14,491 bases of DNA, from the IMG/VR virus record IMGVR_UViG_2579778989_000010. One strand, 5' to 3'. A program made the translations under genes and the position numbers. Shown here in pieces: positions 1 through 14,491 of this stretch. The notes beneath the pieces were generated by a model. That model searched no databases, had not been told where the DNA came from, and worked only from the letters and a program-made list of their open reading frames with translations. Within the stretch, counting starts at the first letter, position 1. Every line of letters begins with the position of its first letter. This stretch comes from a virus. Its lineage: Duplodnaviria; Heunggongvirae; Uroviricota; Caudoviricetes.

Positions 1-738
1 TCATTCACTCTCTTTCAAACCAGTTTTAACTGTTTGTGGTTTTGGGTAAGGCTGGACTTTGAATAGCTTTGTGTTAAGGCGTTTTCTGGCTCTCTTGTCC
101 AGAAACCGGATGTAACGAAACTGACGGAATTTATGAACACTGGCTCTGTCGATATTAGCCCGCAGATGTTCACCTCGCTGTCCTCCTCGTTTGATTGCAT
201 TCTTGCAAATCTCGTGATACCACTCGCCATCAAGTTCATAGAATGTTGTTTCATGACTGCCTACATAATCAAAATTGCTTGCCTGGTACACGACACCAAG
301 ACAGCCACAACGCTCATCTGCAAACGACTGAACCCACTGCACCTGCGGATAAAGTTGTCTGATTAGTTTGAGCGCGTAACTGATTGCCCTTGATTCGGAG
401 TTTCTCGGCATACAGTCATGCAGCCATAACCGGTTAAGCTCCATATATTCGCGGTTCTGCGTGCCAGTTACGACGCGTGCACCATTGTTTGGATTAAGGG
501 CATAACCCCATTGCATTACGCCAACCAGCTCCCGTTCTGAAAATATGCCCAGATGAAGGTAGGAATTATTTACGAAACGATGGCTGTAATGTTTATTGAC
601 GACGACCAGCCGGGCCAGCCAGCAACTTATTGTCTCAACCCGTAACTCACGGGAGCCATAACCGACGATATTGTCGTTATAGTGAATAAGTTCAGGCGTG
701 CTGATGATACGGGATGTAACTTGCTTTCTGTTCCCCAC
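1..738 (-). CDS. mom: Mom-like DNA modification protein; start uncertain (GTG at 738-736 is one candidate, ORF frame is open up to 933)
   Basis: Long ORF in the other frame overlapping the 3' end of a clear com homologue, as in Mu com-mom; the ~230-245 aa portion downstream of the com stop fits Mom size. Identification is by context rather than recognised Mom motifs. Confidence 0.55.
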
Positions 739-892
739 GACAGGATTTCCTTGTGTATGTGGGGTGCTCTGTGGCGCTCTGAGATGTGATTTGATTGAGG
801 GTTTTACAGCGCGGACATTTAACTTCCAGATAACTGAAGCTGGCTCGTGCCAGTAGCTTGTTACAATGTCGGCACCGTATGTTTCGATACAT
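692..892 (-). CDS. com: Com zinc-finger translational activator of mom
   Basis: Translation [35 protein letters not shown] has the CxxC...CxxC finger and close similarity to Mu Com (IRCKNCNKLL...EIRCPRCK); GGAGG Shine-Dalgarno about 8-10 nt upstream of the ATG at 892; the ORF track's longer form from 937 lacks an RBS. Confidence 0.75.
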
Positions 893-937
893 GGCCGCAT
901 AACCTCCTGCTTTGTTGTTGATATCTTTATCACTCAA

Positions 938-1030
938 TCGATCGACAAAAACGATCGATTTGATTTATTTAATTGATACAACAAATAACACGAAATGTCA
1001 TTAGCGAAAATTTATGAGTTTGATCACTAA
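938..1030. promoter_or_regulatory. AT-rich region upstream of com with three GATC (Dam) sites, two inside a repeated ATCGATCG palindrome; candidate mom/com regulatory region
   Basis: GATC at 940-943, 953-956 and 1022-1025; in Mu, Dam methylation of GATC sites upstream of mom controls repressor binding. No confident -35/-10 pair found. Confidence 0.3.
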
Positions 1031-1148
1031 TTTTAAACGGTGCTGTAACGCATAAGTGCTGAATGATTGTACATTTGAATACCGCAAAGCAAACAAATCA
1101 ACTAATTTATAGAAGTCAATTGGTTAATTGCCAGCGTAAGAGGCTGCT

Positions 1149-1442
1149 ATGGACAATCATGTAACGACGAGAAATCGAAAAATGATTGAAAATGCGGAAA
1201 TCTATAATGATTATTTTTCCGATTATTCAGATGCCTGCAAATACAGTTCGAGTGCGGGAGAGTTCATATGCTTCAACTTTTTTATTAAATCTTATGTTTT
1301 TCCTCCACTGCAAGAAGATGGAGGTGTGCCACCTCCTGAAATCACTTTGCACCGTATAGCCTCCGTCTCAATGATGGAGCAACAGGCTAATGAGCTGTAT
1401 AGCATTCTGGGAACGATTCTACAAAAGCGTGAATCGGACTAA
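1149..1442 (+). CDS. hypothetical protein (97 aa), AT-rich, divergent from com
   Basis: ATG preceded by AAGAGG Shine-Dalgarno about 6 nt upstream; followed by two hairpins; no recognisable domain. Confidence 0.5.
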   Translation: MDNHVTTRNRKMIENAEIYNDYFSDYSDACKYSSSAGEFICFNFFIKSYVFPPLQEDGGVPPPEITLHRIASVSMMEQQANELYSILGTILQKRESD

Positions 1443-1523
1443 TGATACCGGTTCATTTGCCTGCCCGGATGGGGAAGCAGGATTGACTGCTCCATAAGCA
1501 GCTATATTTCTGAATACGAAATA

Positions 1524-1552
1524 CTATCCAGCGATTACATATGGCTGGATAG
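1524..1552. repeat. perfect 9-bp inverted repeat CTATCCAGC-(11 nt)-GCTGGATAG
   Basis: Read directly from sequence; lies between convergent genes; could be an RNA hairpin or a protein-binding palindrome. Confidence 0.5.
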
Positions 1553-1577
1553 CGGCAAAGATGTTTTCATTAGTGTC

Positions 1578-1610
1578 AAACCGGCAGAGGACACCACCGG
1601 TTTGTATTGT
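1578..1610 (+). terminator. hairpin AAACCGG-(12 nt)-CCGGTTT followed by GTATTGT; weak candidate terminator between convergent genes
   Basis: 7-bp stem with a partly T-rich 3' flank on the plus strand; lies 3' of both 1149..1442(+) and 1610..1864(-). Confidence 0.3.
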
Positions 1611-1864
1611 TACATCATGGTACTGTCAGTTCCGGGCTGAGCCGGGTCTGGTTGCTCTGGCTGCGCGTCGGTTTTCGGCTCATTATCAGCATCACTGGCC
1701 GCAACTGCTGGCCCAATAAGTTTTGCCAGCACTTCATCAACGTAAGTGTCGATTTGTGCCTCAAAATCCTTGCGGACCTGCGCTTTCAGCAACTTATTTA
1801 CTTCACCGGAATACAGTGCCTGTTTTACCAGGTCTTCAGTGACGGTGCCTTTAATTTCTGGCAT
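1610..1864 (-). CDS. hypothetical small acidic protein (84 aa)
   Basis: ATG preceded by strong AAGGAGG Shine-Dalgarno; C-terminal half is Asp/Glu/Pro/Gln-rich; no recognisable domain. Confidence 0.55.
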   Translation of the reverse strand: MPEIKGTVTEDLVKQALYSGEVNKLLKAQVRKDFEAQIDTYVDEVLAKLIGPAVAASDADNEPKTDAQPEQPDPAQPGTDSTMM

Positions 1865-1899
1865 GTATATCCTCCTTATGCGGGAATAAAGCCCTGCAA

Positions 1900-2082
1900 T
1901 CAGGGCTGGGTCGGGTCTTTTGGGAGCGGAGTTACCTGCGCTGTTTTACTGAGTTTTTCAGCTGCTGCGTCCTCAATTTTGCGGCGAACATAATTTCTGA
2001 TGGCCTTATAACCACCACTCACCAGATATAACGCACATACTGCCGTGCAGAAATACAATAAAATAAGCTGTAAAAATGTCAT
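1900..2082 (-). CDS. small membrane protein (60 aa): one N-terminal hydrophobic helix and a charged C-terminal tail
   Basis: ATG at 2082 preceded by GGGAGG Shine-Dalgarno about 5 nt upstream (the ORF track's start at 2094 has no RBS); MTFLQLILLYFCTAVCALYLVSGGY is a predicted transmembrane segment. Confidence 0.45.
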   Translation of the reverse strand: MTFLQLILLYFCTAVCALYLVSGGYKAIRNYVRRKIEDAAAEKLSKTAQVTPLPKDPTQP

Positions 2083-2178
2083 TATCCCTCCCAATTATTG
2101 ACATGGTGTTGACACCGGTAATATCTGTTAGGTAAAAAGGTGCACTGCATTTTTTGCTTTGGATATAACGATCTTTTT

Positions 2179-2220
2179 GCCGCCGGTTTCTTGTTTTCCC
2201 TTACCGGCGGCATTTTTTTA
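2179..2220 (+). terminator. intrinsic terminator, plus-strand specific: GCCGCCGGT-(15 nt)-ACCGGCGGC followed by ATTTTTTTA
   Basis: 9-bp GC-rich stem plus a 7-T run on the plus strand; the minus-strand RNA has A's 3' of the stem, so it should not terminate the esterase transcript. Confidence 0.5.
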
Positions 2221-2226
2221 TCCTGC

Positions 2227-4281
2227 TTACGCGTTATTCACTTCCACCACGATACTGTCAATCAGTACCGGGTAAGTCGCATTTTTAGTGATATCGGTCA
2301 CGCGCAACTTGTCTGCCGTAAACGTGCCGACCGGAGACTGCGACAGCATGAATGGTGTCCCGTCCTTACCATCAATGACCGGCGTCACCTCAATACTGTT
2401 GTTACCGGCAAAACGGAAGCCCAGCGTATGCCATTCGTTATTAAATGCGCCGAATGACCCCAGCTTCGTGTTCTGCGCCGTGTTTCCTTTGTGATACATC
2501 ACGTTAAGGTCTGTGGCATCGCTCTGTACGTAGAACGATGCCAGCAGGTTATGACCGGCATTTCCTTCCAGAGTAACCCCTTGCGGCAGGGCAGAAACCG
2601 GCCAGTACAGCGCCAGTGCGTACTGATTAGCCGTAAGCGCGCCATCGAGTTTAAAACGACAACTGACAAGACCACCTTTACCCAGCAGGTCCGCACCATT
2701 ACCAGCATCATGCTCAAGGTACCAGGGGGCTCTTCCTGTTTCCTTGGTCAGTTTCATTGCCTTACCCCCGCTGGCTCCGGCATCATCCACGATTTGAGCC
2801 TTGCCACCTCCGGCAGCCCAACCCTGTGGTGTCAACCGTCCTTCAGACTCAGATGCCCGGTAAGCAAATAGCGTACTCATCGTCGTGGTGTCTGCGGGTG
2901 GCGTGGACGGTTTTGATGGTGTATCAGGTGACGGCTTCTCATCCGGTGGTGTCACGGTCTGCCCGCGCATCAGTTCAGCCGTGCGCCCTGCATGGAGCAT
3001 AATAGCTGAGGCCAGACGGTCTGAAATGACGCCCCTGCGTGCCCATGAGCTGAAATGGCTGTCACGCTGTGTCGAAACAAAACTGCCCTGGGTTCGGGAT
3101 GCTGCACCGTAATACCCGACAGCCACAATATCCGGGTCTTCCGCCGGAGCATTCGTTGGCGTGCTCTGTCCATTCTCATCCGTCAGGAACGGTACAAAGA
3201 AAATTTTCTGTGCTTCCTTGCCTTTGTAGCCACCGTATACTGCCTCATATTTATCGGTGCCAGCGTTTTTCCAGTAATACGTGGTATCACCGCAAATCCA
3301 CGGCACCGTGGTGGCATTTCCACTCACGCACTGCGCAGCAAGCGGAGCCAGGTCAGTTCTGAACTGCTGAACCATGGCCGTGAATAAACTATTATGCTGC
3401 TGGCTTCCTGAGGCAAGGTCTGCCTCTCCCTGCATCCAGACCACAGCCAGAAGTTTGTTTTTCGGGTTTTTCGCCAGCGCGACTTTGGTGCGGCTTACCA
3501 GGTCCTGATACAGAGGTTTACCGGCCCCCCAGCGTGAAGAATCAGCGGAAGCACCGCTGGCCTCACTGAATGAGCCGTCGGCTCCAGTGGTGAATGCTGA
3601 CCCGCCACGACAACAGGGCACCAGAAGTATCCCGGCATTCTGTGGGATATAGGGAAGCAGTTTTTTGGCAATATGCAACCCCTGACCGACAGTCCCGTAC
3701 TGGCCTTTTGCCAGATCAGCTTTCGGGTGGTTTATCCCGCTCATATCCTGAACATCATGCAGGCAGTGGTCTGCCGGAATGATGTCGTTGTATGTACACG
3801 ACGTACCGTTGGGCGTTACCGTACTGCGGCGTGCCAGTTGCTTAATGCGTGGGTCCGGGCGGTCAAACGAATCCGGTAACGGCAGCCCCTCGCCGTAGGC
3901 CATGCCATTTGACTGACCCGCGAGAATGACAACAAAGTAATATTCCGGCTCTGAACTGCTGCCATTCGTGCTACCGGAAGGCCCGGCGTTATCCGGTGCA
4001 TTCCAGTCGGAGGGCGTGAGCGTTCCGGCCACGTCAGATGTGATTGGAATGATGCCAGTCACGCCTGAACTGGTGATTTCTGCACTGGGATTACCGGATA
4101 CCGGCATTACCCATAATGGCTCTTTCGTGCTGAAGCGGATCACGCAGTCTGCGAAGGTGATCCCCCCTTTATTACCCGAAGGGCGGAAAGGGCTTTCAAT
4201 AAATGCCACCGTGCCACCGGCAACCTTGACTGAAAACTCTCCGGGCATGGCGGAGAGCATTTTCCACTTGGAGTCTGACAT
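2227..4281 (-). CDS. SASA/SGNH-family esterase (sialate O-acetylesterase-like; architecture resembles prophage NanS-p), 684 aa
   Basis: SGNH/SASA-like motifs in order: ILAGQSNGMAYG (block I GQSN), VWMQGEAD, RDSHFSSW (candidate DxxH block); N-terminal ~100 aa and C-terminal ~250 aa extra domains; Shine-Dalgarno is weak. Confidence 0.65.
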   Translation of the reverse strand: MSDSKWKMLSAMPGEFSVKVAGGTVAFIESPFRPSGNKGGITFADCVIRFSTKEPLWVMPVSGNPSAEITSSGVTGIIPITSDVAGTLTPSDWNAPDNAGPSGSTNGSSSEPEYYFVVILAGQSNGMAYGEGLPLPDSFDRPDPRIKQLARRSTVTPNGTSCTYNDIIPADHCLHDVQDMSGINHPKADLAKGQYGTVGQGLHIAKKLLPYIPQNAGILLVPCCRGGSAFTTGADGSFSEASGASADSSRWGAGKPLYQDLVSRTKVALAKNPKNKLLAVVWMQGEADLASGSQQHNSLFTAMVQQFRTDLAPLAAQCVSGNATTVPWICGDTTYYWKNAGTDKYEAVYGGYKGKEAQKIFFVPFLTDENGQSTPTNAPAEDPDIVAVGYYGAASRTQGSFVSTQRDSHFSSWARRGVISDRLASAIMLHAGRTAELMRGQTVTPPDEKPSPDTPSKPSTPPADTTTMSTLFAYRASESEGRLTPQGWAAGGGKAQIVDDAGASGGKAMKLTKETGRAPWYLEHDAGNGADLLGKGGLVSCRFKLDGALTANQYALALYWPVSALPQGVTLEGNAGHNLLASFYVQSDATDLNVMYHKGNTAQNTKLGSFGAFNNEWHTLGFRFAGNNSIEVTPVIDGKDGTPFMLSQSPVGTFTADKLRVTDITKNATYPVLIDSIVVEVNNA

Positions 4282-4366
4282 CGTCTTTTCTGCCTGTTTC
4301 TGAATTAAACAGAGTCAGAATAGCGACCGCTGAAAAATATGTGTTTTGCGGAAATTCAAAAAAGCG

Positions 4367-4939
4367 TCACGGTACTTTTGGTGACGGAGCTGGTGAGGCA
4401 GGAAAATAACGATAAAGGGTGGAAAGGCCAATATCAAATATCAGTGCGATTTGTTTACGGGACTCGCCATTAGCCAGCAAACGGGCGATTTGCTCCCGCT
4501 CTTTCTCTGTCAGTTTCTGAGGTCTGCCGCCATGACGCCCCTGAGCACGGGCAGCAGCAAGACCCGCGCGTGTACGTTCAATAATGAGTTCCCGCTCCAT
4601 TTCCGCCAGCGCGCCCATTATATGGAAAAAGAAACGTCCCATGGGAGTGGATGTATCAATATTGTCCGTAATGCTGCGGAAGTTAACGCCGCGTTGCCGG
4701 AGTTCTTCTGTTAAAAGGACAAGGTGCTGCATACTGCGTCCAAGGCGATCCAGTTTCCAGACCAGCAGGGTATCCCCTGGCCGGAGTCGCTTTAATGCGC
4801 GTTTAAGTCCGGGACGCTCCCTTGTCTTACCGCTTATTCTGTCTTCGAAAAACAGCTCACATCCTGCACATTCCAGCGCATTTCTTTGTAGCGCCGTATT
4901 CTGGTCATTTGTTGACACCCTGATATACCCAATCAGCAT
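4367..4939 (-). CDS. gin: Gin/Pin-family serine DNA invertase
   Basis: MLIGYIRVSTNDQNTALQRNAL...VWKLDRLGRSM...MGRFFFHIMGALAEMERELIIERT is near-identical in pattern to Mu Gin / e14 Pin (catalytic Ser in RVST); AAGGAA Shine-Dalgarno and a TATAAT-like hexamer upstream. Confidence 0.9.
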   Translation of the reverse strand: MLIGYIRVSTNDQNTALQRNALECAGCELFFEDRISGKTRERPGLKRALKRLRPGDTLLVWKLDRLGRSMQHLVLLTEELRQRGVNFRSITDNIDTSTPMGRFFFHIMGALAEMERELIIERTRAGLAAARAQGRHGGRPQKLTEKEREQIARLLANGESRKQIALIFDIGLSTLYRYFPASPAPSPKVP

Positions 4940-5004
4940 ACGATTTCCTTATTATAAAAAGCCGGAATTGTCGCATGAGGAATAAAACAGAGTTAATCCT
5001 GGCT

Positions 5005-5030
5005 TTCCTGAAAACCTCGGTTTACGGGAA
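5005..5030. other. gix-like recombination (crossover) site for Gin
   Basis: TTCCTGAAAACCTCGGTTTACGGGAA is an imperfect palindrome whose AAAACCTCGGTTTAC core matches the Mu gix/hix core as I recall it; sits between gin and the S' segment as in Mu. Confidence 0.6.
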
Positions 5031-5378
5031 ACGGTAAACAGGGCGGCGAATGCTCTGCCATCGGACGGCACCGCCGTTGCCGCGAATAGACTCGCCACCC
5101 CAAGAAATATTAATGGGGTTCCCTTTGACGGGACGCAGGACATAAACATCACTTCTGGTATAACACAGCAGGATGCGGATTCCCGATATATCCAGGATAT
5201 CAGGCTGGGAGCAGAGAACAGGCAGGTAATGTACGGTGGGGCATATTACTCTGCGTACGGTAATGTTATGGCAGGCCTGCAGATTGACAGTAAAGTTGAT
5301 GCTTCAAACGATTTTATAGCATTCAGACCCCTGCAAAAATTAGTCGGAGGTACATGGATTACGGTATCTCAGTTATAA
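5031..5378 (+). CDS. tail-fibre variable C-terminal segment (S'-like), start-less; expressible only when fused to a constant S part by inversion
   Basis: Frame is open from just upstream of gix to TAA at 5376-5378 with no upstream start; translation ...AANALPSDGTAVAANRLATPRNINGVPFDGTQDINITSG... resembles tail-fibre repeat regions; followed by a tail-fibre assembly gene. Confidence 0.5.
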   Translation, partial: TVNRAANALPSDGTAVAANRLATPRNINGVPFDGTQDINITSGITQQDADSRYIQDIRLGAENRQVMYGGAYYSAYGNVMAGLQIDSKVDASNDFIAFRPLQKLVGGTWITVSQL

Positions 5379-5429
5379 ATAGTCAGTAAATAATATATTT
5401 TAAAACAGATTTATTTCCAGGAGGATTTT

Positions 5430-5951
5430 ATGGAACTAAAAAATATAACCCGTTATTATCCTGAAAATATGCCATATGGTAATAATGTTCAGTATTTCCA
5501 GAGTGAAGATGGTAAGGATTTCTACGAATCCCTGCCATTATTCACCAAAAAATATAAACTTTGCATAACACCTGACAGCGGCGTTATCTGCTCAATATCA
5601 CAGGACGCCTCGGCGCTGTATCCTGCGGGGTTTTCTGTGGTTGAGGTCGATGAACTCCCTGAAGGCACGGATATTTCAGGAAACTGGAAGTTTGATAATG
5701 GCATAATCTCCCGTATTCCGGTTAACTACGCAAGAAAACTGGAAGCAATGCGCCAGTCATATCTTAATCAGGCATATGAAAAAATTAATGACTGGAGAAC
5801 GGAGCTACAACTGGGCACCATCAGCGATGAAGACAGAGCAGCACTTACCCAATGGATGGCATACATCAGTCAGGTGAAGAAAATGGAACTACCCGCCATT
5901 AAAACAGAAGCTGAATTTAACGCCATTAAATGGCCTGAGCAGCCACAGTAA
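5430..5951 (+). CDS. tail fibre assembly protein (U'/Tfa family)
   Basis: AGGAGG Shine-Dalgarno; 173 aa; LGTISDEDRAALTQWMAYISQVKKM... ending WPEQPQ resembles Mu U/U' and other tail fibre assembly proteins. Confidence 0.8.
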   Translation: MELKNITRYYPENMPYGNNVQYFQSEDGKDFYESLPLFTKKYKLCITPDSGVICSISQDASALYPAGFSVVEVDELPEGTDISGNWKFDNGIISRIPVNYARKLEAMRQSYLNQAYEKINDWRTELQLGTISDEDRAALTQWMAYISQVKKMELPAIKTEAEFNAIKWPEQPQ

Positions 5952-5955
5952 TAAA

Positions 5956-5973
5956 GAAGGCCGGAAGGCCTTC
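5956..5973. terminator. short hairpin GAAGGCC-GGAA-GGCCTTC immediately 3' of U'
   Basis: 7-bp stem read from sequence; no strong T-tract, so terminator function is uncertain. Confidence 0.3.
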
Positions 5974-5982
5974 TGAATATCA

Positions 5983-6231
5983 TTATATACTTGCAGCCGT
6001 CACCCATGCTTCATTTAACAGATACTGCAACGGCCGGTAATACACGCCGCCGACGTTATCTGCCGTATTCTTACCGACATCCTGTACTTTAATTCCGGTA
6101 AGAACATTGCCGCCCCCCAGATTCAGATCCCAGCTTTCCCATGTTCCGGGCATATGTGCGGTCACCGACCCCAGTCTTATGGCGGTTAATGGCGTTTTCC
6201 CCGCCATCAGCGATAAAGCCCTGCCGGTGCA
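5983..6231 (-). pseudogene. start-less open frame of unknown origin, possibly a C-terminal remnant of a late (tail-fibre-related) gene left at the deletion junction
   Basis: Frame open for 82 codons from a stop at 6232-6234 with no upstream partner; overlaps the gemA-like ORF's 3' end in another frame; Gly/Asn/Val-rich like fibre C-termini. Weak. Confidence 0.25.
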
Positions 6232-6481
6232 TCACTTTCCAGATGGCGCGAATTTTGGCGGTCACCGTCCCCGGTTTTAAGGCCCGGTTAACCGGCTTCT
6301 GACGCACTTTAAAACCGCGTTTTTTGAAAACATCCAGCACGCGGGATAACTCATCCGGTGACATATCCCGGCAACTGGGTTTGCCGGTGGCTGCCAGTAG
6401 TACGGATGTGTAGGTCTCATGGTCAAGCTGTAGATCGCGTTTTGCGACATGTATTAAGGTAATCAGGGAAGCGCGATTCAT
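6089..6481 (-). CDS. gemA: GemA/gp16-like early protein (DUF1018-like); C-terminus probably altered by the deletion junction
   Basis: MNRASLITLIHVAKRDLQLD...GKPSCRDMS...KIRAIWKVMHRQGFIADGGENAIN matches the Mu-like gp16 pattern as I recall it; the last ~25 residues lose the expected pattern; GGAGA Shine-Dalgarno. Confidence 0.5.
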   Translation of the reverse strand: MNRASLITLIHVAKRDLQLDHETYTSVLLAATGKPSCRDMSPDELSRVLDVFKKRGFKVRQKPVNRALKPGTVTAKIRAIWKVMHRQGFIADGGENAINRHKTGVGDRTYARNMGKLGSESGGRQCSYRN

Positions 6482-6545
6482 TATCGTGTCTCCGTAACAA
6501 CAGGCGGCATGGCAACGCCGCCCGGATAAAACTAAAGGTATCGAT

Positions 6546-6956
6546 ATGAAAATAGATTACGATGAAGTATTAAGTATTCTCACAACTTTTCAGGATGCTG
6601 AAACACCTTTCCTTACACTACAGGATCTGGGCATGGCTGAGGCAGAAGGAGAGGAAAAGGATAAAAAAGTTTTTCATCTTATGCTTCTCGCTGATAATGG
6701 CTCAATTGTTAATGGTGATATGCAGTCAGAAACACCCAAATATATTGGTTTCTTTTTCCATTCTCTGGGCGTTGGTTTCAGAAACACGCCCATTATGCTT
6801 ACCCAGCAGGGGCATGATTTAGCTAACGCCCTGAGAAAAAAACCAATCCTTGAAAGAATCAAAAAGGAGTTTACAGACGCACCATTTGATCTAATTAAAG
6901 AAGTTACCAAATCAATGTTAACCAGGTTCGTCAAAGAACGTATTGGGATTGACTGA
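6546..6956 (+). CDS. hypothetical protein (136 aa), AT-rich, opposite strand to the early operon
   Basis: ATG with AAAGG Shine-Dalgarno; visibly more AT-rich than flanking genes; divergent from the gemA-like gene; 3' end overlaps the convergent gene 6918..7226 by 39 bp. Confidence 0.5.
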   Translation: MKIDYDEVLSILTTFQDAETPFLTLQDLGMAEAEGEEKDKKVFHLMLLADNGSIVNGDMQSETPKYIGFFFHSLGVGFRNTPIMLTQQGHDLANALRKKPILERIKKEFTDAPFDLIKEVTKSMLTRFVKERIGID

Positions 6957-7226
6957 ACAACTTAATTCAGCCAGTAATCGCAGGGCGGCGACAGCCGCCT
7001 GCTTGTCACTTCTTTTAGCTATTTCCGCAAGAGTATGCACAATCCATAACGGACTTAACGCCACGGCTGAATCCAGAATCATGTCATCCATAATAATTTC
7101 TGGCATATCCCGCTTGTCACATTCTTTATCCATAAAAGAAACGAATTTCTCTGCATCTTCCGGTTTCATGCCTCCGGCGATAAGGATTTTGCGATATTCA
7201 TAAGACGATCTTAATTCAATACTCAT
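6918..7226 (-). CDS. hypothetical protein (102 aa)
   Basis: ATG with AGGTGA Shine-Dalgarno 5 nt upstream, immediately after the TAA of the preceding gene. Confidence 0.5.
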   Translation of the reverse strand: MSIELRSSYEYRKILIAGGMKPEDAEKFVSFMDKECDKRDMPEIIMDDMILDSAVALSPLWIVHTLAEIAKRSDKQAAVAALRLLAELSCSVNPNTFFDEPG

Positions 7227-7241
7227 TATTCACCTGCCTGC

Positions 7242-7592
7242 TTAATCTGTTTCCAGTGCTTTGCTACGGGCTATAGCCTCACATTCAAAAAATACCGACT
7301 CCGGCACGCGCTCTTTTAATTCACGAACAAGGAAATCATTAACGCGTTCATGACGTCTTATATTTCTTTCCTTTTCCTCCTGGCGCAATACAGCAAGGCG
7401 GTATTCAACAGCCCGGCGTTGTTTCTGAAAGACAGCCAGTGCTTTTCTGGCAGCATTACGCCATGCATCATCGCCACATGGTGCGTATTCAAGCTGAAAT
7501 TTAATCTCTTCAATAGTTTCTTTGATTTTTGCCAGCAAGCTAAGACAGTCGCTTATTGTCTCCAGCTTTTCATTATCAATATAACTTCTCAC
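7242..7592 (-). CDS. hypothetical early protein (116 aa from GTG; charged, probably helical)
   Basis: GTG at 7592-7590 overlaps the upstream TGA (GTGA coupling); the ORF track's longer form from 7634 overlaps the upstream gene by 46 bp. Confidence 0.45.
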   Translation of the reverse strand: MRSYIDNEKLETISDCLSLLAKIKETIEEIKFQLEYAPCGDDAWRNAARKALAVFQKQRRAVEYRLAVLRQEEKERNIRRHERVNDFLVRELKERVPESVFFECEAIARSKALETD

Positions 7593-7918
7593 GCATTCAC
7601 CTCCCGTAATTCCGGTAAAGCCGAAATATGACACCAGTGCGTCACCTGTCCGTCTTCATCTTCAAGGCAGGCTCCGGTTTCTTCATCAACAAAAAAGCCT
7701 TCATACCCCATATGGCCGATGCGCAGCTCCTGACGGTGACCATACTGAACAATCAGCACGACAGCCTCCATATCAGGTGGGAAAGCATCATTCAGTGAAT
7801 GCCAGGGATAACCGCGTAAATCCCCGAAATAAACACCGGTCAGCGTTCCGCCACAGAGCGGCATTCCGGCGGCACACACAAGAGGTTCATCTGATTCAAC
7901 AAATAAGGTCGTTATCAT
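7589..7918 (-). CDS. hypothetical early protein (109 aa)
   Basis: ATG overlaps the upstream stop as ATGA; same strand and tight packing as the rest of the operon. Confidence 0.5.
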   Translation of the reverse strand: MITTLFVESDEPLVCAAGMPLCGGTLTGVYFGDLRGYPWHSLNDAFPPDMEAVVLIVQYGHRQELRIGHMGYEGFFVDEETGACLEDEDGQVTHWCHISALPELREVNA

Positions 7919-8466
7919 GGCGTTAACTCCCGTAATACAGCGTCCTCGGCAGTCCGGCGACGGTAATAAACTGCGTGAGCAGAATGTTCAGATATTCCAA
8001 ACTTTTCGCCAATTTCCCGGAATGACAGACGGCGTGGGTAATCGGAATCACGCAGCGCACGTATAAGACGTACATCATCATCAGATATGCGCGTGCCGGG
8101 GCGTAACTCTCCGCACTTTGTTAATCCAGCACCAATCATTCCTGCCCGACATCTGACAGAATCTTTATTACGTCCGAGATATTCTCCCATTTGCTGGCAG
8201 GTCATTGTTCTGGCATTTTTTCGAATAAACTTATCTTCATCAGGTGTAAATCTTGGGTGTTTATATTTCAGTAACTCCGGGTATGAACTGCGCAATACAC
8301 CAGTCCGGTTATATACAGCCCAGACAGTTCTTTTTATTCTGGCAGCAATATCCTTAACCGGGGTGGATGAATAAAGCGCAATCAGTAGCGCATCTTCTTC
8401 AGGTGTCCACGCGCGGACATGAGCGGGTGTACGACCTTTTCGCCCCATGTGTTGTAAAATCATCAT
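7915..8466 (-). CDS. putative DNA-binding protein with two Myb/SANT-like repeats and a C-terminal helix-turn-helix-like segment (183 aa)
   Basis: Repeats WTPEEDALLIALY...VWAVYNR and RFTPDEDKFIRKN...; C-terminal RLSFREIGEKFGISEHSAHAVYYRR; GGGGGTGA Shine-Dalgarno. Confidence 0.5.
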   Translation of the reverse strand: MMILQHMGRKGRTPAHVRAWTPEEDALLIALYSSTPVKDIAARIKRTVWAVYNRTGVLRSSYPELLKYKHPRFTPDEDKFIRKNARTMTCQQMGEYLGRNKDSVRCRAGMIGAGLTKCGELRPGTRISDDDVRLIRALRDSDYPRRLSFREIGEKFGISEHSAHAVYYRRRTAEDAVLRELTP

Positions 8467-8469
8467 ACA

Positions 8470-8985
8470 TCACCCCCTGACTCGCTTTTCGGCAGCATAA
8501 AACTCATCAGACAGAATTTCGGTCATTTTCCGTTTTGCGGAATCATCTTCGCACTGAAGATAAATCACATTGTCAACGCAGAACCAGTTCACGGGACCAT
8601 ACAATATTGCTGAGAAGTCAATACCCAGCCAGAACAACAGGGCATCGGTTCTGGCATACGTGACGGGCGAATATTCACGCCACAGACTGTTCAGTTCATC
8701 AGAGGCAACACGCAGGGCTTTAGGGATACGTGATGTGCGCGGTGTGCAGCTCCAGCCATTCGACGCAGTCGGTTTTCGCCATAAGTCGCGATGAAAAGGA
8801 TATTTGTCCTCCGTAAAACGCAGTCCCTTAAAACAAAAACCACTGATACTGAATTCAAATACCGACCGGCACGCAACATTCAGCACGGCCTCAAGGCGTT
8901 TCGCCTCATCTTTTACCGTCTGGCAGTCCTGCTGGTATTTTTGCCACGCAGCCAGCGCGGAAGGGTTTGATGTTTTAAAGAACAT
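8470..8985 (-). CDS. hypothetical early protein (171 aa)
   Basis: ATG overlaps the upstream TAA (TAATG); GGAGGTG Shine-Dalgarno. Confidence 0.5.
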   Translation of the reverse strand: MFFKTSNPSALAAWQKYQQDCQTVKDEAKRLEAVLNVACRSVFEFSISGFCFKGLRFTEDKYPFHRDLWRKPTASNGWSCTPRTSRIPKALRVASDELNSLWREYSPVTYARTDALLFWLGIDFSAILYGPVNWFCVDNVIYLQCEDDSAKRKMTEILSDEFYAAEKRVRG

Positions 8986-9518
8986 TACGCCACCTCCGCA
9001 GATATCCCGGCAGGCGCTGCTGTCCGGTCAACAATCAGGTAGCGCAGAACACGCGCGGTGATATTCCAGCCGCTTAAACCGCAGATGATGACACCCAGGC
9101 GAATGTCGATATACGCCATCACAAACTGGGGCACGCCTTCTTTCATGGCCTGCTCATCAACTTCAGCCACCACATAAACGGTTTCACAGGTCAGAACGCC
9201 CTGAGCAAATTCCCACGCCATCGACGGAATATCATGCCCCTCAATCCATGGCAGGGATTTTCTGAAGCTGCACCACTGAACATCATCAGCCGCAGATTCC
9301 TGTCTGCATTTGCGACGAATCGGCTGCACCGGGCGGGGACGCGGAATATCATAAAAACCGTTACATTCCGTCAGCACCCCGGCATCAACCGCATCACGCA
9401 GAAAATAAACCATGGAGGATGGCGGCATATTCATTTTTTCAGCCAGTACGCCGCAGGTCAGACGCCCGTAAATACTCAGCCAGTTTTTAACCCCTTCAAG
9501 CACTTTTGCATCAATCAT
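8985..9518 (-). CDS. hypothetical early protein (177 aa)
   Basis: ATG with GGAGGA Shine-Dalgarno; co-oriented and tightly packed. Confidence 0.5.
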   Translation of the reverse strand: MIDAKVLEGVKNWLSIYGRLTCGVLAEKMNMPPSSMVYFLRDAVDAGVLTECNGFYDIPRPRPVQPIRRKCRQESAADDVQWCSFRKSLPWIEGHDIPSMAWEFAQGVLTCETVYVVAEVDEQAMKEGVPQFVMAYIDIRLGVIICGLSGWNITARVLRYLIVDRTAAPAGISAEVA

Positions 9519-9521
9519 GAA

Positions 9522-10064
9522 TTATTCCTCCGTCAGCGCCACATATTCAGAATGTTTAATTTCCTGGCATTCTTCAGGAATACATCCGTTTATTTCCCTG
9601 CCATAAGCGCCCACTTTAAACACCACGCACAGGGCATCACGGGAGAACGAAGGGGTCCACCAGGAGTCCGTGTTAAACATGGAGGGGATTCTCATTACCC
9701 CCAGCTTTTCACAGAGCCAGACAAGGAAATCAGGACGCTTTCTTAACTCGCGTTCAGCGGCTTCAATCATTGCGGCAATCGCCGGTCCTTCAGGGCATGA
9801 CTCATCAGGTCTGGCTATAAAGCACTGTCCGCCACCGATAAAAGCCACATCATCGCGCTTACGCCAGCCCGCAGGCAGAGCACCGGCAAAATAAAACTCA
9901 CTGATTCTGTCCATGGCGAACGGCTTTAAGCGCAATCCGGCAGCGCCTGTATTTTTCAGTAATGTCCGAAGAATACTGTTGCGTAGCGGTAAAACAGCCT
10001 GTTGATATTTGGTGAAATATTTATTTGTCTGCACACGGTCTAATTTGAAATAAAAATATGCCAT
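9522..10064 (-). CDS. hypothetical early protein (180 aa)
   Basis: ATG with AAGGAA Shine-Dalgarno; preceded by an AT-rich ~100 bp spacer after gam. Confidence 0.5.
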   Translation of the reverse strand: MAYFYFKLDRVQTNKYFTKYQQAVLPLRNSILRTLLKNTGAAGLRLKPFAMDRISEFYFAGALPAGWRKRDDVAFIGGGQCFIARPDESCPEGPAIAAMIEAAERELRKRPDFLVWLCEKLGVMRIPSMFNTDSWWTPSFSRDALCVVFKVGAYGREINGCIPEECQEIKHSEYVALTEE

Positions 10065-10161
10065 ATTTCCGATTCCTTATTTTCAGCTTTCAGGCGCAAG
10101 CAGTCCCCTGACGCGAGCGCCATAATTAAAATGAAGTGATATTTAAATAATTAATGCGGTG

Positions 10162-10692
10162 TTATTTATTCAGTCCGGCATCCTGTTCAAAAGGCTCGAC
10201 ATAAAAACTTTCAGCGCCTTTATTCACCTTTATACCGGCAATGCCTTTCACCGCATCCGGCTCCGCCAGGACGGCTTCCTTGTTCACTTCCTCTTTCGTG
10301 CGGATGAATCGCTCAAGCCCCATACGGCGCAGCGTGTCAATCACACCTTCCACATCACGGCTGACGCTGCATGATGGCGTTCCCAGCCGCCATGACACCG
10401 TTCCGGTGGTCAGATTGGCAGTTTTGGTTTTGCCGCCGTTCGTCAGCTCATCACGGTTGGTTTTACACCAGTCCTGAATCCCTTTAAAAAGCACTTTGAT
10501 TTGCTTTTTAAGATTTTCAATCTGCGGCGTATAACGGGCGGTGATTTCTGCCACTTCATCATTCATCGCCGTTTCCAGGCGCAGCGCCTCTCGCTGAATA
10601 TCGCCCAGGGTGCGGATATCGCGGCTGACTTCTTCGCGGGTCTGCGGTGCGGCCTCGGCTACAGCCTTTAATTTTGTAACGCGTTTTGCCAT
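10162..10692 (-). CDS. gam: Gam host-nuclease inhibitor (Mu Gam / Ku-like DNA end-binding protein)
   Basis: RLETAMNDEVAEIT and NRDELTNGGKTKTANLTTGTVSWR...LERFIRTKEEVNKEA closely match my recollection of Mu Gam; 176 aa; AAGGA Shine-Dalgarno. Confidence 0.8.
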   Translation of the reverse strand: MAKRVTKLKAVAEAAPQTREEVSRDIRTLGDIQREALRLETAMNDEVAEITARYTPQIENLKKQIKVLFKGIQDWCKTNRDELTNGGKTKTANLTTGTVSWRLGTPSCSVSRDVEGVIDTLRRMGLERFIRTKEEVNKEAVLAEPDAVKGIAGIKVNKGAESFYVEPFEQDAGLNK

Positions 10693-10703
10693 TTTGTTTT
10701 TCC

Positions 10704-10997
10704 TTATTGCAATGTATCTGGTGCGTTCTGCAAGGAGCGGCGCTCAATGCTGCTTTTCACCCCCAGAGCCTGCATGGAACCCTGAAGTTCATCTGTCAGA
10801 AACTGAATAATTGTGGGGCTGTGATATTTAAGAATTTGCGCATAAACATCACATGGGCCTGTCGGTCTGTTCTCCGTATCACGTTCGATTTTTACAGTGG
10901 CAGTAACCCCCTCCGTGATTTCCTGACTATCATTACCGGCTGGCTTTACTTCATGCATTACGTGGTTAAATTCAAAAATAACGCGTACTTTGCTCAT
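10704..10997 (-). CDS. hypothetical early protein (97 aa from the internal ATG); N-terminal motif shared with the upstream gene
   Basis: ATG at 10997 has AGGGG Shine-Dalgarno; begins MSKVRVIFEFNHVMHEVK, paralleling MSKVVHIIFEYKEHVIHK of the neighbour. Confidence 0.45.
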   Translation of the reverse strand: MSKVRVIFEFNHVMHEVKPAGNDSQEITEGVTATVKIERDTENRPTGPCDVYAQILKYHSPTIIQFLTDELQGSMQALGVKSSIERRSLQNAPDTLQ

Positions 10998-11001
10998 GGA
11001 A

Positions 11002-11274
11002 TTACCCCTGCTGATTAAATTCATTACCGTTAATAACCCCGGAAGCCATGCCCCTGTCTTTCATGAATGCACTGGCTTTCATTGCCACAAGCTCTGCGAA
11101 GTTTCTGCTTTCCGCGAGCATAACCACCCCAAAAATCATGGCGGGGCCATCACCTTTCTGCTTTATCCCCGTTGAACGTATGTCCAGACTTACCCCCATG
11201 CGCACTGTTCCATCAGCGTTTTTATGGATAACGTGCTCCTTATATTCGAAAATAATGTGTACGACTTTACTCAT
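11002..11274 (-). CDS. hypothetical early protein (90 aa); N-terminal motif shared with the downstream gene
   Basis: ATG overlaps the upstream stop (ATGA); similar first ~18 residues to the downstream gene. Confidence 0.45.
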   Translation of the reverse strand: MSKVVHIIFEYKEHVIHKNADGTVRMGVSLDIRSTGIKQKGDGPAMIFGVVMLAESRNFAELVAMKASAFMKDRGMASGVINGNEFNQQG

Positions 11275-11552
11275 CCTCTGGTCCTCGTTCTGTTTGGATA
11301 ACTGACCCGGCGTCTGACCTCACGGCAGAACCGAATCATGGCATTAAAGGCTTCTTCCTCCGTCACCGCTTCCGGTATCCCCGGAACCAGTAACTGCTCC
11401 TGTTCATCACGTCCATGACGCGCCATAACCTCAATCACATGCCGTACCGTGGCAGGCTTTCCGGCAACTATCGGCAATGCACCTTCCGGCAGGACGTAAC
11501 CAAACTCAATAAGACCACTCGACCACGCCCATGCAATGAGATTTTTTTTCAC
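11271..11552 (-). CDS. hypothetical early protein (93 aa), GTG start
   Basis: GTG at 11552 preceded by GGGAGGTG Shine-Dalgarno; adjacent to the upstream stop. Confidence 0.45.
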   Translation of the reverse strand: MKKNLIAWAWSSGLIEFGYVLPEGALPIVAGKPATVRHVIEVMARHGRDEQEQLLVPGIPEAVTEEEAFNAMIRFCREVRRRVSYPNRTRTRG

Positions 11553-11553
11553 C

Positions 11554-11820
11554 TCACACCTCCCAGTAAACCGTGCAGCCGCTGATGCGGGTGGCCTTCA
11601 CACGGCGGCGCAGGCCGTTGGTCTGTATGGTGATTTCAATTTCACCGGTTCCCTGCACGTTGCCTACCGGCGGCGTGGTTTTCAGTGCAAAACGTTGCGG
11701 ATAGCGCTTACTGCGTTCCAGTACCGCACCGGCAAGTTCGGTCAGACGGCGCGCGCTGTTCAGGGAGTCGAATAAATTCATTTTGTTACCGCAGGATTGC
11801 ATATTCATATAACACCTCAT
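11554..11820 (-). CDS. hypothetical early protein (84-88 aa; start at 11820 or at the internal ATG 11808, which has an AGGTG Shine-Dalgarno)
   Basis: ORF directly follows the kil-like gene; start choice ambiguous. Confidence 0.4.
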   Translation of the reverse strand: MRCYMNMQSCGNKMNLFDSLNSARRLTELAGAVLERSKRYPQRFALKTTPPVGNVQGTGEIEITIQTNGLRRRVKATRISGCTVYWEV

Positions 11821-12042
11821 TTAGCTGACTTGTTTCGCACCAACAGAACGGCATATTCCGCTGTAAACTTCTGTCGCACCTTCGCGATCAAGTCCGGCAG
11901 ATATCACCATTCGTGTGCGGTCATTAAATTCAAAAAGTAAATCGCCACATTCTTTATTTTCGGCCAGTGAAATCACCTTCACGTTATCGAAATTAACCAG
12001 GTAAAAGCGTCCGTAAATATCAGGAATATTAAATACCGCCAT
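11821..12042 (-). CDS. kil: Kil-like small early protein (73 aa)
   Basis: Position immediately downstream of B with overlap of the B stop, as for Mu kil; size ~74 aa; ATG 12042 has AGGTG Shine-Dalgarno. Identity by position and size only. Confidence 0.4.
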   Translation of the reverse strand: MAVFNIPDIYGRFYLVNFDNVKVISLAENKECGDLLFEFNDRTRMVISAGLDREGATEVYSGICRSVGAKQVS

Positions 12043-12044
12043 AA

Positions 12045-12977
12045 TCACACCTGTGAGAGTAATTCAGGGTTGGTATAAACCTCTTTAAAGGCCGCATTAA
12101 TATGTTTTTCTGTCAGCGCCGCGCCTTCACCGCTGGCGGTGAGCCACGCCTGGTTAAGCGTATGTGTCAGAACGCGTAACGCTCCCGGCTTTTCAGCGAT
12201 AGCCTGCATGACGGCCAGCTCGGCCTCACCACTGATCCCCCACGCCATGGCAATGGCCAGCACATCCGCCTTTTTGGCCTTGCGAAGTTGTTTTGTACGG
12301 GCAAGACGGCTGAACAGGCGCGATAAATCATCAAAGGCGCGGCGTCCACCTTTAAACAATCCGCGCGGGTTACCAATAAGCACCATCCCGATCCCCGTGG
12401 CGTCCTGAATTGCCCGGAGTTGCTCCAGACCGTCAATACCAAGATGATCCGCCTCATCCACAATCACCAGTCCACGCGTTCCCATCAGGCGACGGCGGAT
12501 GGCGCGGGATAATGCCCCTTTGTTCGCGCGGGTGTAATCAATCCCCAGCGCATCGGCCAGCTCCAGCAGACACTCCGTGACGCTGGAGTGCGCGGGTGAC
12601 AGGGTGATCATCCAGGTGTTTGGTTGCTCCTGGCAGTAATTACGGGCAGTGGCCGTTTTACCCACACCCGGTACGCCCACAATAACGTTAATACAGCCCA
12701 TCAGGCGAACCGCCTGAAACAGTGCGCGCAGCTCCTGGACTGTCTGAGTTTCCACAAACTGCGGCGGTTCCGGCAGTGCGCTTTGTTTATTCCAGTTCTC
12801 ATACCAGGAGCGCAGGGAAGCAGCCACAGCAGCGTTATCGCCTTTATATTTTCCCTTACGGAAAGCCGATAATGTGCCGTCGGAAATTCCCGCCTCTCTG
12901 GCGATGGCATACTGCGTCAGTACGCCGCCATCAATAAGTTCATCAATGGTCTTGATTACATCGTTAATATCGGTCAT
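12045..12977 (-). CDS. B: MuB-like AAA+ ATPase (transposition target-DNA activator) with N-terminal HTH
   Basis: Walker A GVPGVGKT, VIVDEADHLG (Walker B), KPGALRVL, and N-terminal GISDGTLSAFRKGKYKGDN all parallel Mu B; ~310 aa versus 312 in Mu; GAGGTGA Shine-Dalgarno before ATG 12977. Confidence 0.85.
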   Translation of the reverse strand: MTDINDVIKTIDELIDGGVLTQYAIAREAGISDGTLSAFRKGKYKGDNAAVAASLRSWYENWNKQSALPEPPQFVETQTVQELRALFQAVRLMGCINVIVGVPGVGKTATARNYCQEQPNTWMITLSPAHSSVTECLLELADALGIDYTRANKGALSRAIRRRLMGTRGLVIVDEADHLGIDGLEQLRAIQDATGIGMVLIGNPRGLFKGGRRAFDDLSRLFSRLARTKQLRKAKKADVLAIAMAWGISGEAELAVMQAIAEKPGALRVLTHTLNQAWLTASGEGAALTEKHINAAFKEVYTNPELLSQV

Positions 12978-13059
12978 ATTATTCACCTCGCTTGAGACAG
13001 CATTCTCCGAGACTGAAACCTCAAATAACCTGAGTCACCCCTCGGGTTATTTTTTTATT

Positions 13060-14491
13060 TCAGGCCAGCGGATCACTTTCTTTTAATTTCGCTTCGAGCA
13101 ACTGCAATCCCCGCTGGAAATTACGCTCGTATTCTTCATCAGGTTCATCGTCAGCGACCGGTTGCTGAACGGTCACCGTATTACCCACAGGGCGGTATAT
13201 GTTTTCCAGCCAGGGCTCCTGCGGCTTGTGCTCCAGCACGTTGACAACCTCATCCTCGGCATCACGGATTTTTTCCTCTGCGCGTTTACGCATGCCTTTA
13301 AGGCGCTGCTGCTGTTTGTAGTATTCCGCGCTGACAGGGAAGGCTTCGCGTTTATTGCCGTCCCATATCCGAGTAATACAGAAACGGTTTGCCATGATGG
13401 CGAATACCGTGCTGTATGGCACCGGCTACGGCGAAAACATTTTCAGCCAGGTCAAGGCTCCAGCCCACCACAAAGCGCGTGCCACCGTCGATAACAAAGG
13501 TCACTTCCGGTGCGAATGGCCGCCCGTGAACCGGGTGCGCGCATTTCAGCTTCATGCCGTGACCGTCACCAATCCAGACATAATTCACCGGCATTCTGGA
13601 CCAGTCGCGGCGCGTGAATCCCTCAAGCTGACGGTATTCACTGCCAGTTACCCGGCCTTTTTGTTTCACCACTTCCGGCAGTTTCTTCATTGCGCGGCGA
13701 ATGGTGTCATAAGAGGGCATGATATCGAGCATATAAGGCTCATCAGCGTGCCGGTGCTGCCATTCAGCAACAAAATCCTCGTAAGCCTCGGTCATTGGTC
13801 GGCCGTTTGACTGGCGATACTGCGCCAGAAATTCGGGCAGCCAGTTAATATCTTCGGCTTTTATTTCCTGGCGTTTACCCGGTGCCAGTAAAAGCAGGCG
13901 TTCAGCGGCGTTCTGTGCCTTGTTAAAGGCCGCAATCCAGCGTTTCAGCGTGATTTCACTCAACGCGCGGCTGTTTCCCTTTTTGGCGTTCGCCGTCTCA
14001 ACCATTGCCACAATGCGCTCGTCCAGTTGTGATCGTGCCAGGCTGTTAACGAGGAACCGGATAGCCTTAGCGCAACTAAAGCCGGGTTGTTGCGCGATTT
14101 TCAGCACCTCGCTGACGATCGCTATTCGTGCCTCTGCCACTTTACGTTGGTTTTCAGTCAGGGCATTGAGGCGTTCGACCATCAGTTGGGGTGATCCGCG
14201 ATATGCCTCCACCGCATCAACCACGGCAGGTGAGCGTCTGGCCTTTGTCACCACCGGAGCCGGTGATTCATCGGCTTTTTGCGTCATCAGTTGCAGGGCG
14301 TAGCGTTCACGTAATGCCTGCTGCGTCACTTCAGGTAAACAGTCGATGCTGTATTCAGTTGCTTTAGAGCCTGAGCGACGACGGGAACAACAGCTTTTCC
14401 CTTGTACGTAACGTTGTAATGCCTGGCGAATACCTTTTGTTGTAGCAGGCATTCCGGGCGCGCCAATCAGTTCTTTTGCAATGACATACAT
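13060..14491 (-). pseudogene. A: MuA-like DDE transposase, 5' end at or beyond the window edge, disrupted by an internal deletion and frame change near 13340-13430
   Basis: N-terminal 379-aa frame aligns with MuA from the N-terminal DNA-binding region through the first two catalytic Asp regions (NYVWIGDGHG..., FLYYSDMGRQ) and then hits a stop at 13352; a second frame (13060..13422) encodes the MuA C-terminus (EYYKQQQRLK..., PVGNT..., DDEPDEEYE). About 200 residues including the catalytic Glu are absent. Confidence 0.7.

Follow-up and report, generated by a model that had tools for sequence, protein, structure and literature searches.

NanS-p sialate O-acetylesterases are prophage-borne enzymes, described from lambdoid and Shiga toxin (Stx) phages (933W L0105/z1466; phi24B vb_24B_21, also gp84; PDB 6YP6), in which an N-terminal DUF1737 domain precedes a SASA/SGNH catalytic domain and a C-terminal DUF6645 domain. 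Their genes lie between Q/stx and the holin gene, are followed by DUF1378 and DUF826 genes and encode no signal peptide. The lambdoid enzymes have been reported to act on Neu5,9Ac2 and O-acetylated mucin glycans, with lysogens growing on Neu5,9Ac2 (PMC8065619; PMC10462455), and both papers cite Franke et al. 2020 for a C-terminal domain with a lectin-like jelly-roll fold that probably binds carbohydrate. The chromosomal homologue NanS (YjhS, 9-O-acetyl-N-acetylneuraminate esterase; PDB 3PT5) is a single domain of ~330 amino acids (aa) without either flanking domain. The right end of phage Mu (AF083977) leaves 94 bp between gin, the last position of which is 35673, and com, which starts at 35768; Pmom spans 35693-35759. 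Here we describe a nanS-p gene at 2227-4281 of the IMG/VR virus record IMGVR_UViG_2579778989_000010 (Caudoviricetes; 14,491 nucleotides, the whole of which is called the window), where it lies between gin and com of a transposable Mu-like prophage.

The window has a Mu-like right end, with gin followed by com and mom at the element end in the same order and orientation as in Mu and with GATC palindromes upstream of com; from the gin stop to the com start, however, it holds ~3.47 kb with four open reading frames (ORFs). A preliminary description of the window had reported a 684-aa esterase gene here, co-oriented with gin and mom, in a gap of about 3.4 kb where Mu was said to have no large gene. 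All of this holds: the ORF is undamaged at these coordinates, all three genes are on the minus strand, and Mu has Pmom only. The gene and its parts are as follows.

2227..4281, minus strand: nanS-p ORF, 684 aa, ATG start, stop codon 2227-2229; predicted three-domain sialate O-acetylesterase, undamaged
4003..4281, minus strand: N-terminal 'Mu-type' domain, residues 1-93, predicted all-beta, in the place of DUF1737
3952..4002, minus strand: Gly/Ser/Pro-rich linker, residues 94-110, predicted disordered
2992..3951, minus strand: SGNH/SASA catalytic domain, residues 111-430 (3PT5 match, Pfam SASA, motifs)
3910-3912, minus strand: codon of Ser124, the GQSN serine
3055-3063, minus strand: codons of Asp407 and His409 in the DSHF motif
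2230..2877, minus strand: C-terminal lectin-like jelly-roll (DUF6645), residues 469-684 (6YP6 and Pfam DUF6645)

A sialate 9-O-acetylesterase of the NanS-p family is very probably the product of this ORF, which opens a three-gene module (nanS-p-DUF1378-DUF826); the enzyme would act on O-acetylated sialic acids. Residues 110-428 align end to end with NanS/YjhS of Escherichia coli O157:H7 over the full NanS length (PDB 3PT5, E 2e-117), and residues 469-683 align with the C-terminal domain of phi24B NanS-p (PDB 6YP6, E 7e-98). Pfam searches matched SASA at residues 117-312 (E 1.5e-13; 51 bits against a cut-off of 24.8) and DUF6645 at residues 533-650 (E 7e-68; 226 bits), bearing out the earlier proposal of a SASA/SGNH esterase that resembles NanS-p and has additional domains at both ends. 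The motifs on which that proposal was built are present (GQSN at 122-125, QGEAD at 284-288, DSHF at 407-410), and G122-Q-S124-N125, G226, Q284-G-E286, D288 and D407-S-H409 are invariant or nearly so among 109 aligned family members. Together, the structure matches and conserved motifs identify the protein as a NanS-p-family sialate O-acetylesterase. In the 3PT5 alignment, Ser124 and His409 line up with the GQSN serine and SHF histidine of NanS, which we take to be its catalytic Ser19 and His301. The predicted active site has Ser124 as nucleophile and His409 with Asp407, with GQSN, G226 and QGEAD as putative oxyanion-hole blocks. The residue two positions ahead of this histidine is Ser in NanS (RSSHF) but Asp (RDSHF) in the window protein and in 108 of the 109 NanS-p relatives.

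The product is 100% identical to RefSeq WP_001284083.1 (copies in strains AST46 and JKHS016), which is named 'DUF6645 domain-containing protein'; identical or near-identical proteins elsewhere are named 'sialate O-acetylesterase'. NanS-p in 349 phage records, most of them from Stx phages and with the 933W type among them, shares ~65% identity with the body of the protein, and DUF1737-type NanS-p of some E. coli prophages shares 84-93%.

The proposed layout is a ~93-aa Mu-lineage beta domain, a flexible linker, the SGNH/SASA domain, a second linker and the lectin-like jelly-roll. As read from the sequence, the N-terminus has no hydrophobic stretch and therefore no signal peptide, so that the enzyme, by homology, would accumulate in the cytoplasm and reach the gut lumen upon phage lysis. 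The lectin domain may target mucin glycans while the esterase would strip O-acetyl groups from Neu5,9Ac2, as extrapolated from NanS and assayed NanS-p, and the resulting Neu5Ac could be used through the nan pathway. Substrate, release route, expression timing and the role of the N-terminal domain are parts of this picture that we infer. The same module occupies two kinds of site, between Q/stx and the holin gene in lambdoid prophages (Stx and non-Stx) and between gin and com in Mu-like prophages of E. coli and Shigella.

The N-terminal domain is where the window protein differs from lambdoid NanS-p. A search for DUF1737 had been suggested; Pfam gave no match to it (PF08410) in residues 1-110 even at E <= 1, and identity to DUF1737 N-termini is 16-25%; an unrelated, lineage-specific domain of ~93 aa and a linker are found there instead. 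Searches with residues 1-110 matched neither a Pfam nor a PHROG family, and PADLOC gave nothing for the full-length protein. A phmmer search with residues 1-98 against 1.84 billion representatives at full sensitivity returned nothing beyond pieces of these esterases, a single homologue from Salmonella and two spurious matches; a profile search for the domain added E. coli fragments only, and no paralogue was found elsewhere in Mu-like prophages. Real homologues of the domain occur only in esterases of Mu-like prophages (E. coli, Shigella, Salmonella), and each of the 41 Mu-type N-termini seen lies in a Mu-like right end.

Structure prediction with AlphaFold2 (AF2) agrees with a separate N-terminal domain, as the preliminary description had proposed. 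The model, built on 6 sequences with a predicted local distance difference test (pLDDT) score of 72, has five strands (pLDDT ~74-90 for residues 1-80) and falls below 50 for residues 83-107; a fold search with it gave no significant match. It is all-beta and without DUF1737, not the helix and three-stranded sheet of the capsid-binding domain in phi24B gp84, and the modelled fold appears to resemble neither DUF1737 nor any known decoration protein. In a comparison of the window type with the type represented by Sp18 of E. coli O157, pN/pS (non-synonymous and synonymous differences) is 0.23/0.78 for the N-terminal domain (pS saturated) and 0.19/0.72 for SASA. The domain is under purifying selection: pN is far below pS and similar to that of the catalytic domain, and the domain is therefore selected and functional.

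Database searches divided the family into two architecture classes, proteins of ~640-655 aa with DUF1737, SASA and DUF6645 and proteins of 678-691 aa without DUF1737. The window protein belongs to the second, the precomputed Pfam strings of which lack PF08410. Among the closest DUF1737-type alleles is one of strain M3 (P0039), which lies in a lambdoid late region (locus L028) with the order Q ... nanS-p-DUF1378-DUF826-holin-lysozyme-Rz. Window and L028 DNA are 87% identical only from 3949 to 1948, that is, from codon ~111 into DUF1378, and upstream of 3949 identity is at noise level; lambdoid homology begins directly past the linker, at the start of the catalytic domain. Mu-type proteins are 97-100% identical to one another over the N-terminal 95 residues and 81-100% over the SASA and C-terminal domains, and the inter-domain linker of the window protein (residues 431-468) is 100% identical to many lambdoid alleles and 75-89% identical to most other Mu-type proteins. 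From the sharp identity boundary and the linker shared with lambdoid alleles, we conclude that the catalytic-lectin cassette recombines between Mu-like and lambdoid prophages, the N-terminal domain staying with the phage type while the cassette moves. A DUF1737-type allele considered for the Mu-like locus of strain M3 was rejected and assigned to a separate lambdoid prophage in the same genome. The lectin-like domains of Mu-type NanS-p (L024, L062-L065) fall into classes at 40%, 46%, 58%, 72-74% and 86-100% identity to that of the window (2230-2877), while the N-terminus is constant within a lineage, which suggests swapping of the glycan-binding module among Mu-type enzymes.

These patterns bear on where the enzyme acts. 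The Mu-type N-terminal domain could be a capsid or virion adaptor that replaces DUF1737, so that esterase and lectin would be carried on the particle surface, or carried there transiently before proteolytic release, and would serve mucus adherence or penetration instead of, or besides, host metabolism; this proposal overlaps with that of an enzyme freed by lysis and differs only in the site of action. Its model is phi24B gp84, in which DUF1737 hexamers sit on the central hexons of a T=9 capsid and proteolysis releases the esterase and lectin parts (bioRxiv 10.64898/2026.04.10.717836). The swap point exactly at the domain boundary (codon ~111), the N-terminal domain that tracks phage type (41/41 in Mu-like right ends), the exchange of the body with lambdoid alleles and a selected domain followed by a disordered Ser/Gly/Pro linker are all in keeping with it. 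DUF1737-type NanS-p is, however, also found in P2-like phages besides lambdoid prophages, and a DUF1737 domain that is not confined to one phage type weakens the notion of one anchor per capsid type; the small alignment and pLDDT of the AF2 model also count against it. We consider virion display possible but unlikely. The more general scheme, in which NanS-p would be a modular virion-display enzyme with an exchangeable, phage-type-specific N-terminal anchor, the Mu-type domain binding Mu-type particles and the cassette being traded at the linker, is put forward tentatively and on circumstantial evidence.

Among the enterobacterial Mu-like phages sampled, the nanS-p module is a lineage-specific fixture, and it is fixed in the E. 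coli/Shigella Mu-like lineage. The order [gin]-nanS-p-DUF1378-DUF826-(opposite-strand ORF)-com-mom was found in all six E. coli Mu-like right ends read here, and the nanS-p right-end order also in 34 of 34 IMG/VR loci with a Mu-type N-terminus, as far as each contig extends. Carriers of this order are AST46, JKHS016, one bovine isolate and O157 strain FDAARGOS_293, the prophage of which we take to be of the Sp18 type known from O157 Sakai. Strains M3 and S1-CAM-01-A keep the order without gin, nanS-p lying directly 3' of the tail-fibre assembly gene, and Mu_JNE082796, an active-looking element inside Stx phage LC727881, has gin-nanS-p-DUF1378-DUF826-com. DUF826 follows DUF1378 wherever Mu-like contigs extend that far, as it does in lambdoid L028. 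The Sp18-type homologue of O157:H7 (WP_010917876.1) and Mu_JNE082796 share the architecture of the window protein, including the Mu-type N-terminal domain, and its gene order from gin to com. They differ in sequence (66% overall identity; N-terminus 62%, SASA 69%, C-terminus 72-74%) and in the opposite-strand ORF before com, and LC727881 has a C5 cytosine methylase for mom.

Across 5,426 complete E. coli genomes, the mom and com of the window occur in 233 (about 4%). The window-type nanS-p 5' end was found in 28 genomes at >=92% identity (32 matched in all) and the Sp18-type 5' end in 205; 28 and 205 add up to the 233 genomes with mom and com, an agreement of totals and not genome by genome. 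A Mu-like prophage of Salmonella enterica has a version of the N-terminal domain at 30% identity, likewise joined by a Pro-rich linker to a SASA domain, downstream of a tail-fibre, invertible-segment and gin block.

The preliminary description had taken the gene for cargo at the Mu right end. As accessory DNA this stands, but the 6/6 right ends and 34/34 loci speak against a peculiarity of this element. Nor is the gin-com interval a recurrent hotspot across genera: gin adjoins com/mom in Mu and, at loci found through Mom, in Edwardsiella, Pantoea and an Enterobacteriaceae metagenome-assembled genome (L004, L005, L017), and a general cargo hotspot was therefore rejected. The cargo proposal had been set against a tail component found routinely at this position in intact Mu-like phages; the position is indeed routine, including in the intact-looking O157 Sp18 type, but a tail role is nowhere shown. 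This is a well-known family of enzymes, RefSeq already lists this very protein, and its position is the standard one in Mu-like prophages of E. coli. We found no description of the Mu-like location of nanS-p or of the alternative N-terminal domain in the searchable literature, which left out some key papers.

The genes and signals around nanS-p in the window are as follows.

4367..4939, minus strand: gin-type serine invertase, upstream neighbour of nanS-p (Resolvase and HTH_7 matches)
2179..2211, no strand assigned: 10-bp G+C-rich hairpin directly past the nanS-p stop, with a U-run on the plus-strand transcript only
1900..2082, minus strand: DUF1378 small protein, 60 aa, hydrophobic N-terminus (Pfam E 1e-31)
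1610..1864, minus strand: DUF826 small acidic protein, 84 aa (Pfam E 6e-16)
1182..1442, plus strand: orf86, an opposite-strand 86-aa ORF between DUF826 and com
692..892, minus strand: com, translational activator of mom (Zn_ribbon_Com and RefSeq annotation)
1..738, minus strand: mom, DNA adenine modification enzyme (Pfam Mom E 2e-77 and RefSeq annotation)

The gene had been described as followed only by a plus-strand terminator. The terminator is real (-20.1 kcal/mol, z -5.9) and would halt orf86 transcripts going antisense into nanS-p; 'only' does not apply, as the co-oriented DUF1378 and DUF826 genes and then orf86 lie downstream. In the 85-bp gin-nanS-p spacer, no promoter or terminator passed our scan and no convincing sigma-70 promoter was found, and inspection by eye upstream of nanS-p did not show the C-site pattern TTAT-N6-ATAA that is present in Mu Pmom. 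At the gin stop, the small hairpin (z -0.8) scores no better than shuffled sequence; read-through from gin is therefore possible and would be the simplest inference for the predicted expression of nanS-p.

Further downstream, orf86 has no match in Pfam, PHROG or PADLOC and sits in an AT-rich stretch (950-1500, GC 38-40%), and Sp18-type prophages have an unrelated 154-aa ORF in its position. With opposite-strand ORFs and lengths that differ among loci, the DUF826-com stretch is the truly variable slot of the right end. No meaningful PADLOC match marks nanS-p, DUF1378, DUF826 or orf86 as part of a defence system. A palindrome with two GATC sites, AATCGATCGACAAAAACGATCGATT at 936-960, begins ~45 bp upstream of the com start codon and is reminiscent of the Dam-methylation sites of Mu Pmom, but its distance from com is much shorter than in Mu; inspection by eye found no TTAT-N6-ATAA C-site. 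The host junction is <= ~130 bp past the mom stop in related complete genomes. Some Sp18-type Mu-like phages keep com but carry a C-5 cytosine DNA methylase instead of mom (Pfam DNA_methylase E 2e-42; LC727881 Mu-like insert, L002 9420-10472, and strain SW070917, hit H119), apparently a swap of one DNA-modification gene for another behind the same com. Several Mom loci are lambdoid, not Mu-like. Mom homologues of 62-70% identity lie outside Mu-like right ends (L012-L015 and L018: a Sphingomonas-labelled contig, Yersinia and Serratia), and the ORFs upstream of them resemble, as judged by eye only, genes of lambdoid nin or antiterminator regions.

The prophage itself is a deletion derivative. 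Window positions 1-6191 match the right end of Mu-like prophages from 18 complete genomes at >=98.6% identity, and 6182-14491 correspond to the early region (transposase A fragment, B, gam ... gemA); no complete genome was found with the two parts contiguous. In JKHS016 they are ~15.4 kb apart and the stretch between them holds the mor, lysis, head and tail genes, the loss of which leaves this element without lysis or particle assembly of its own. The deletion junction at 6182-6191 (context 5983-6481; …GGCGGTTA|ATGGCG…) has an overlap of ~10 bp and recurs in an independent IMG/VR contig (L033) but in no complete E. coli genome. It fuses the 5' part of gemA/gp16 to the 3' end of a tail-fibre gene, so that the annotated 'GemA' ORF at 6089-6481 is a fusion with its last 32 residues from the tail-fibre region.

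Only 5 bp separate the junction from the point where, in AST46, the distal arm of the inverted repeat (~150 bp) that bounds the invertible segment starts, and consequently a single arm is left and gin has no substrate pair in the window. Intact relatives have an invertible tail-fibre segment flanked by ~150-bp inverted repeats (L001 17010-17158 and 18194-18342), and the window keeps the gin-proximal arm only, at 5010-5158. Among the IMG/VR loci the tail-fibre assembly gene occurs in both orientations, and the segment therefore inverts in the population. The early region is otherwise co-directional but includes an opposite-strand ORF at 6546-6956 (plus strand) that resembles DUF2513 (E 7e-5, which does not reach the Pfam cut-off) and is annotated likewise in JKHS016.

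With ~15.4 kb lost at 6182-6191, including mor and the lysis, head and tail genes, no convincing sigma-70 promoter in the gin-nanS-p spacer and related prophages in complete genomes that are scrambled as well, the gene in this window could be a functionless passenger of a dead prophage, undamaged by recency only and neither expressed nor released. We regard this as improbable: the ORF is without defects and identical to copies in other genomes, including those in fuller prophages, read-through from gin is possible past a hairpin with z -0.8, and lysis by co-resident prophages could still free the enzyme. Least probable of all, and by our estimate quite unlikely, is a tail-fibre accessory that would deacetylate O-antigen or capsule at adsorption, like the SGNH-esterase tailspikes of some coliphages, since its position 3' of the tail-fibre, tail-fibre-assembly and gin block (directly after the assembly gene in gin-less relatives), a weak local 'tail protein' PHROG match (E 1e-6, residues 211-312) and the LPS O-acetyl role raised as an open question for NanS-p (PMC8065619) are met by a PHROG match that spans part of the SASA domain only, by a body that shares 84-93% identity with lambdoid NanS-p, whose genes lie between Q and holin and a long way from the tail genes, by no tail-attachment module, trimerisation domain or trimeric fibre or spike architecture recognisable in Pfam, PHROG or fold searches, and by a phi24B family member on the capsid, not the tail (bioRxiv 10.64898/2026.04.10.717836).

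The interpretation that we prefer, a NanS-p esterase freed by lysis to act on O-acetylated sialic acids, has several points to contend with. No assay of any allele with a Mu-type N-terminus was found in the searchable literature, in which activity reports concern lambdoid alleles only, and the substrate range of NanS-p may include other O-acetylated glycans. Because mor, the lysis genes and every head and tail gene are gone from the window prophage, the element cannot free the enzyme by lysing the cell itself, nor could it supply late regulators of its own if expression depended on them. In addition, phi24B NanS-p can be a structural capsid-decoration protein (bioRxiv 10.64898/2026.04.10.717836), and the view of the NanS-p family as a pure lysogen-benefit moron may be incomplete.

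Few accessory genes on prophages of pathogenic E. coli have a metabolic role that has been demonstrated; NanS-p is one of these few and gives access to the O-acetylated sialic acids of mucin. Transposable Mu-like prophages, those of the O157:H7 Sp18 type included, carry the same catalytic-lectin cassette as a fixed part. Should the anchor idea fail, the window protein would simply add another allele class to an enzyme and a prophage type that are both known already. If it holds, the exact replacement at the linker of the phi24B capsid-anchor domain by a conserved orphan domain in Mu-like phages would bear on NanS-p as a virion enzyme with swappable anchors.

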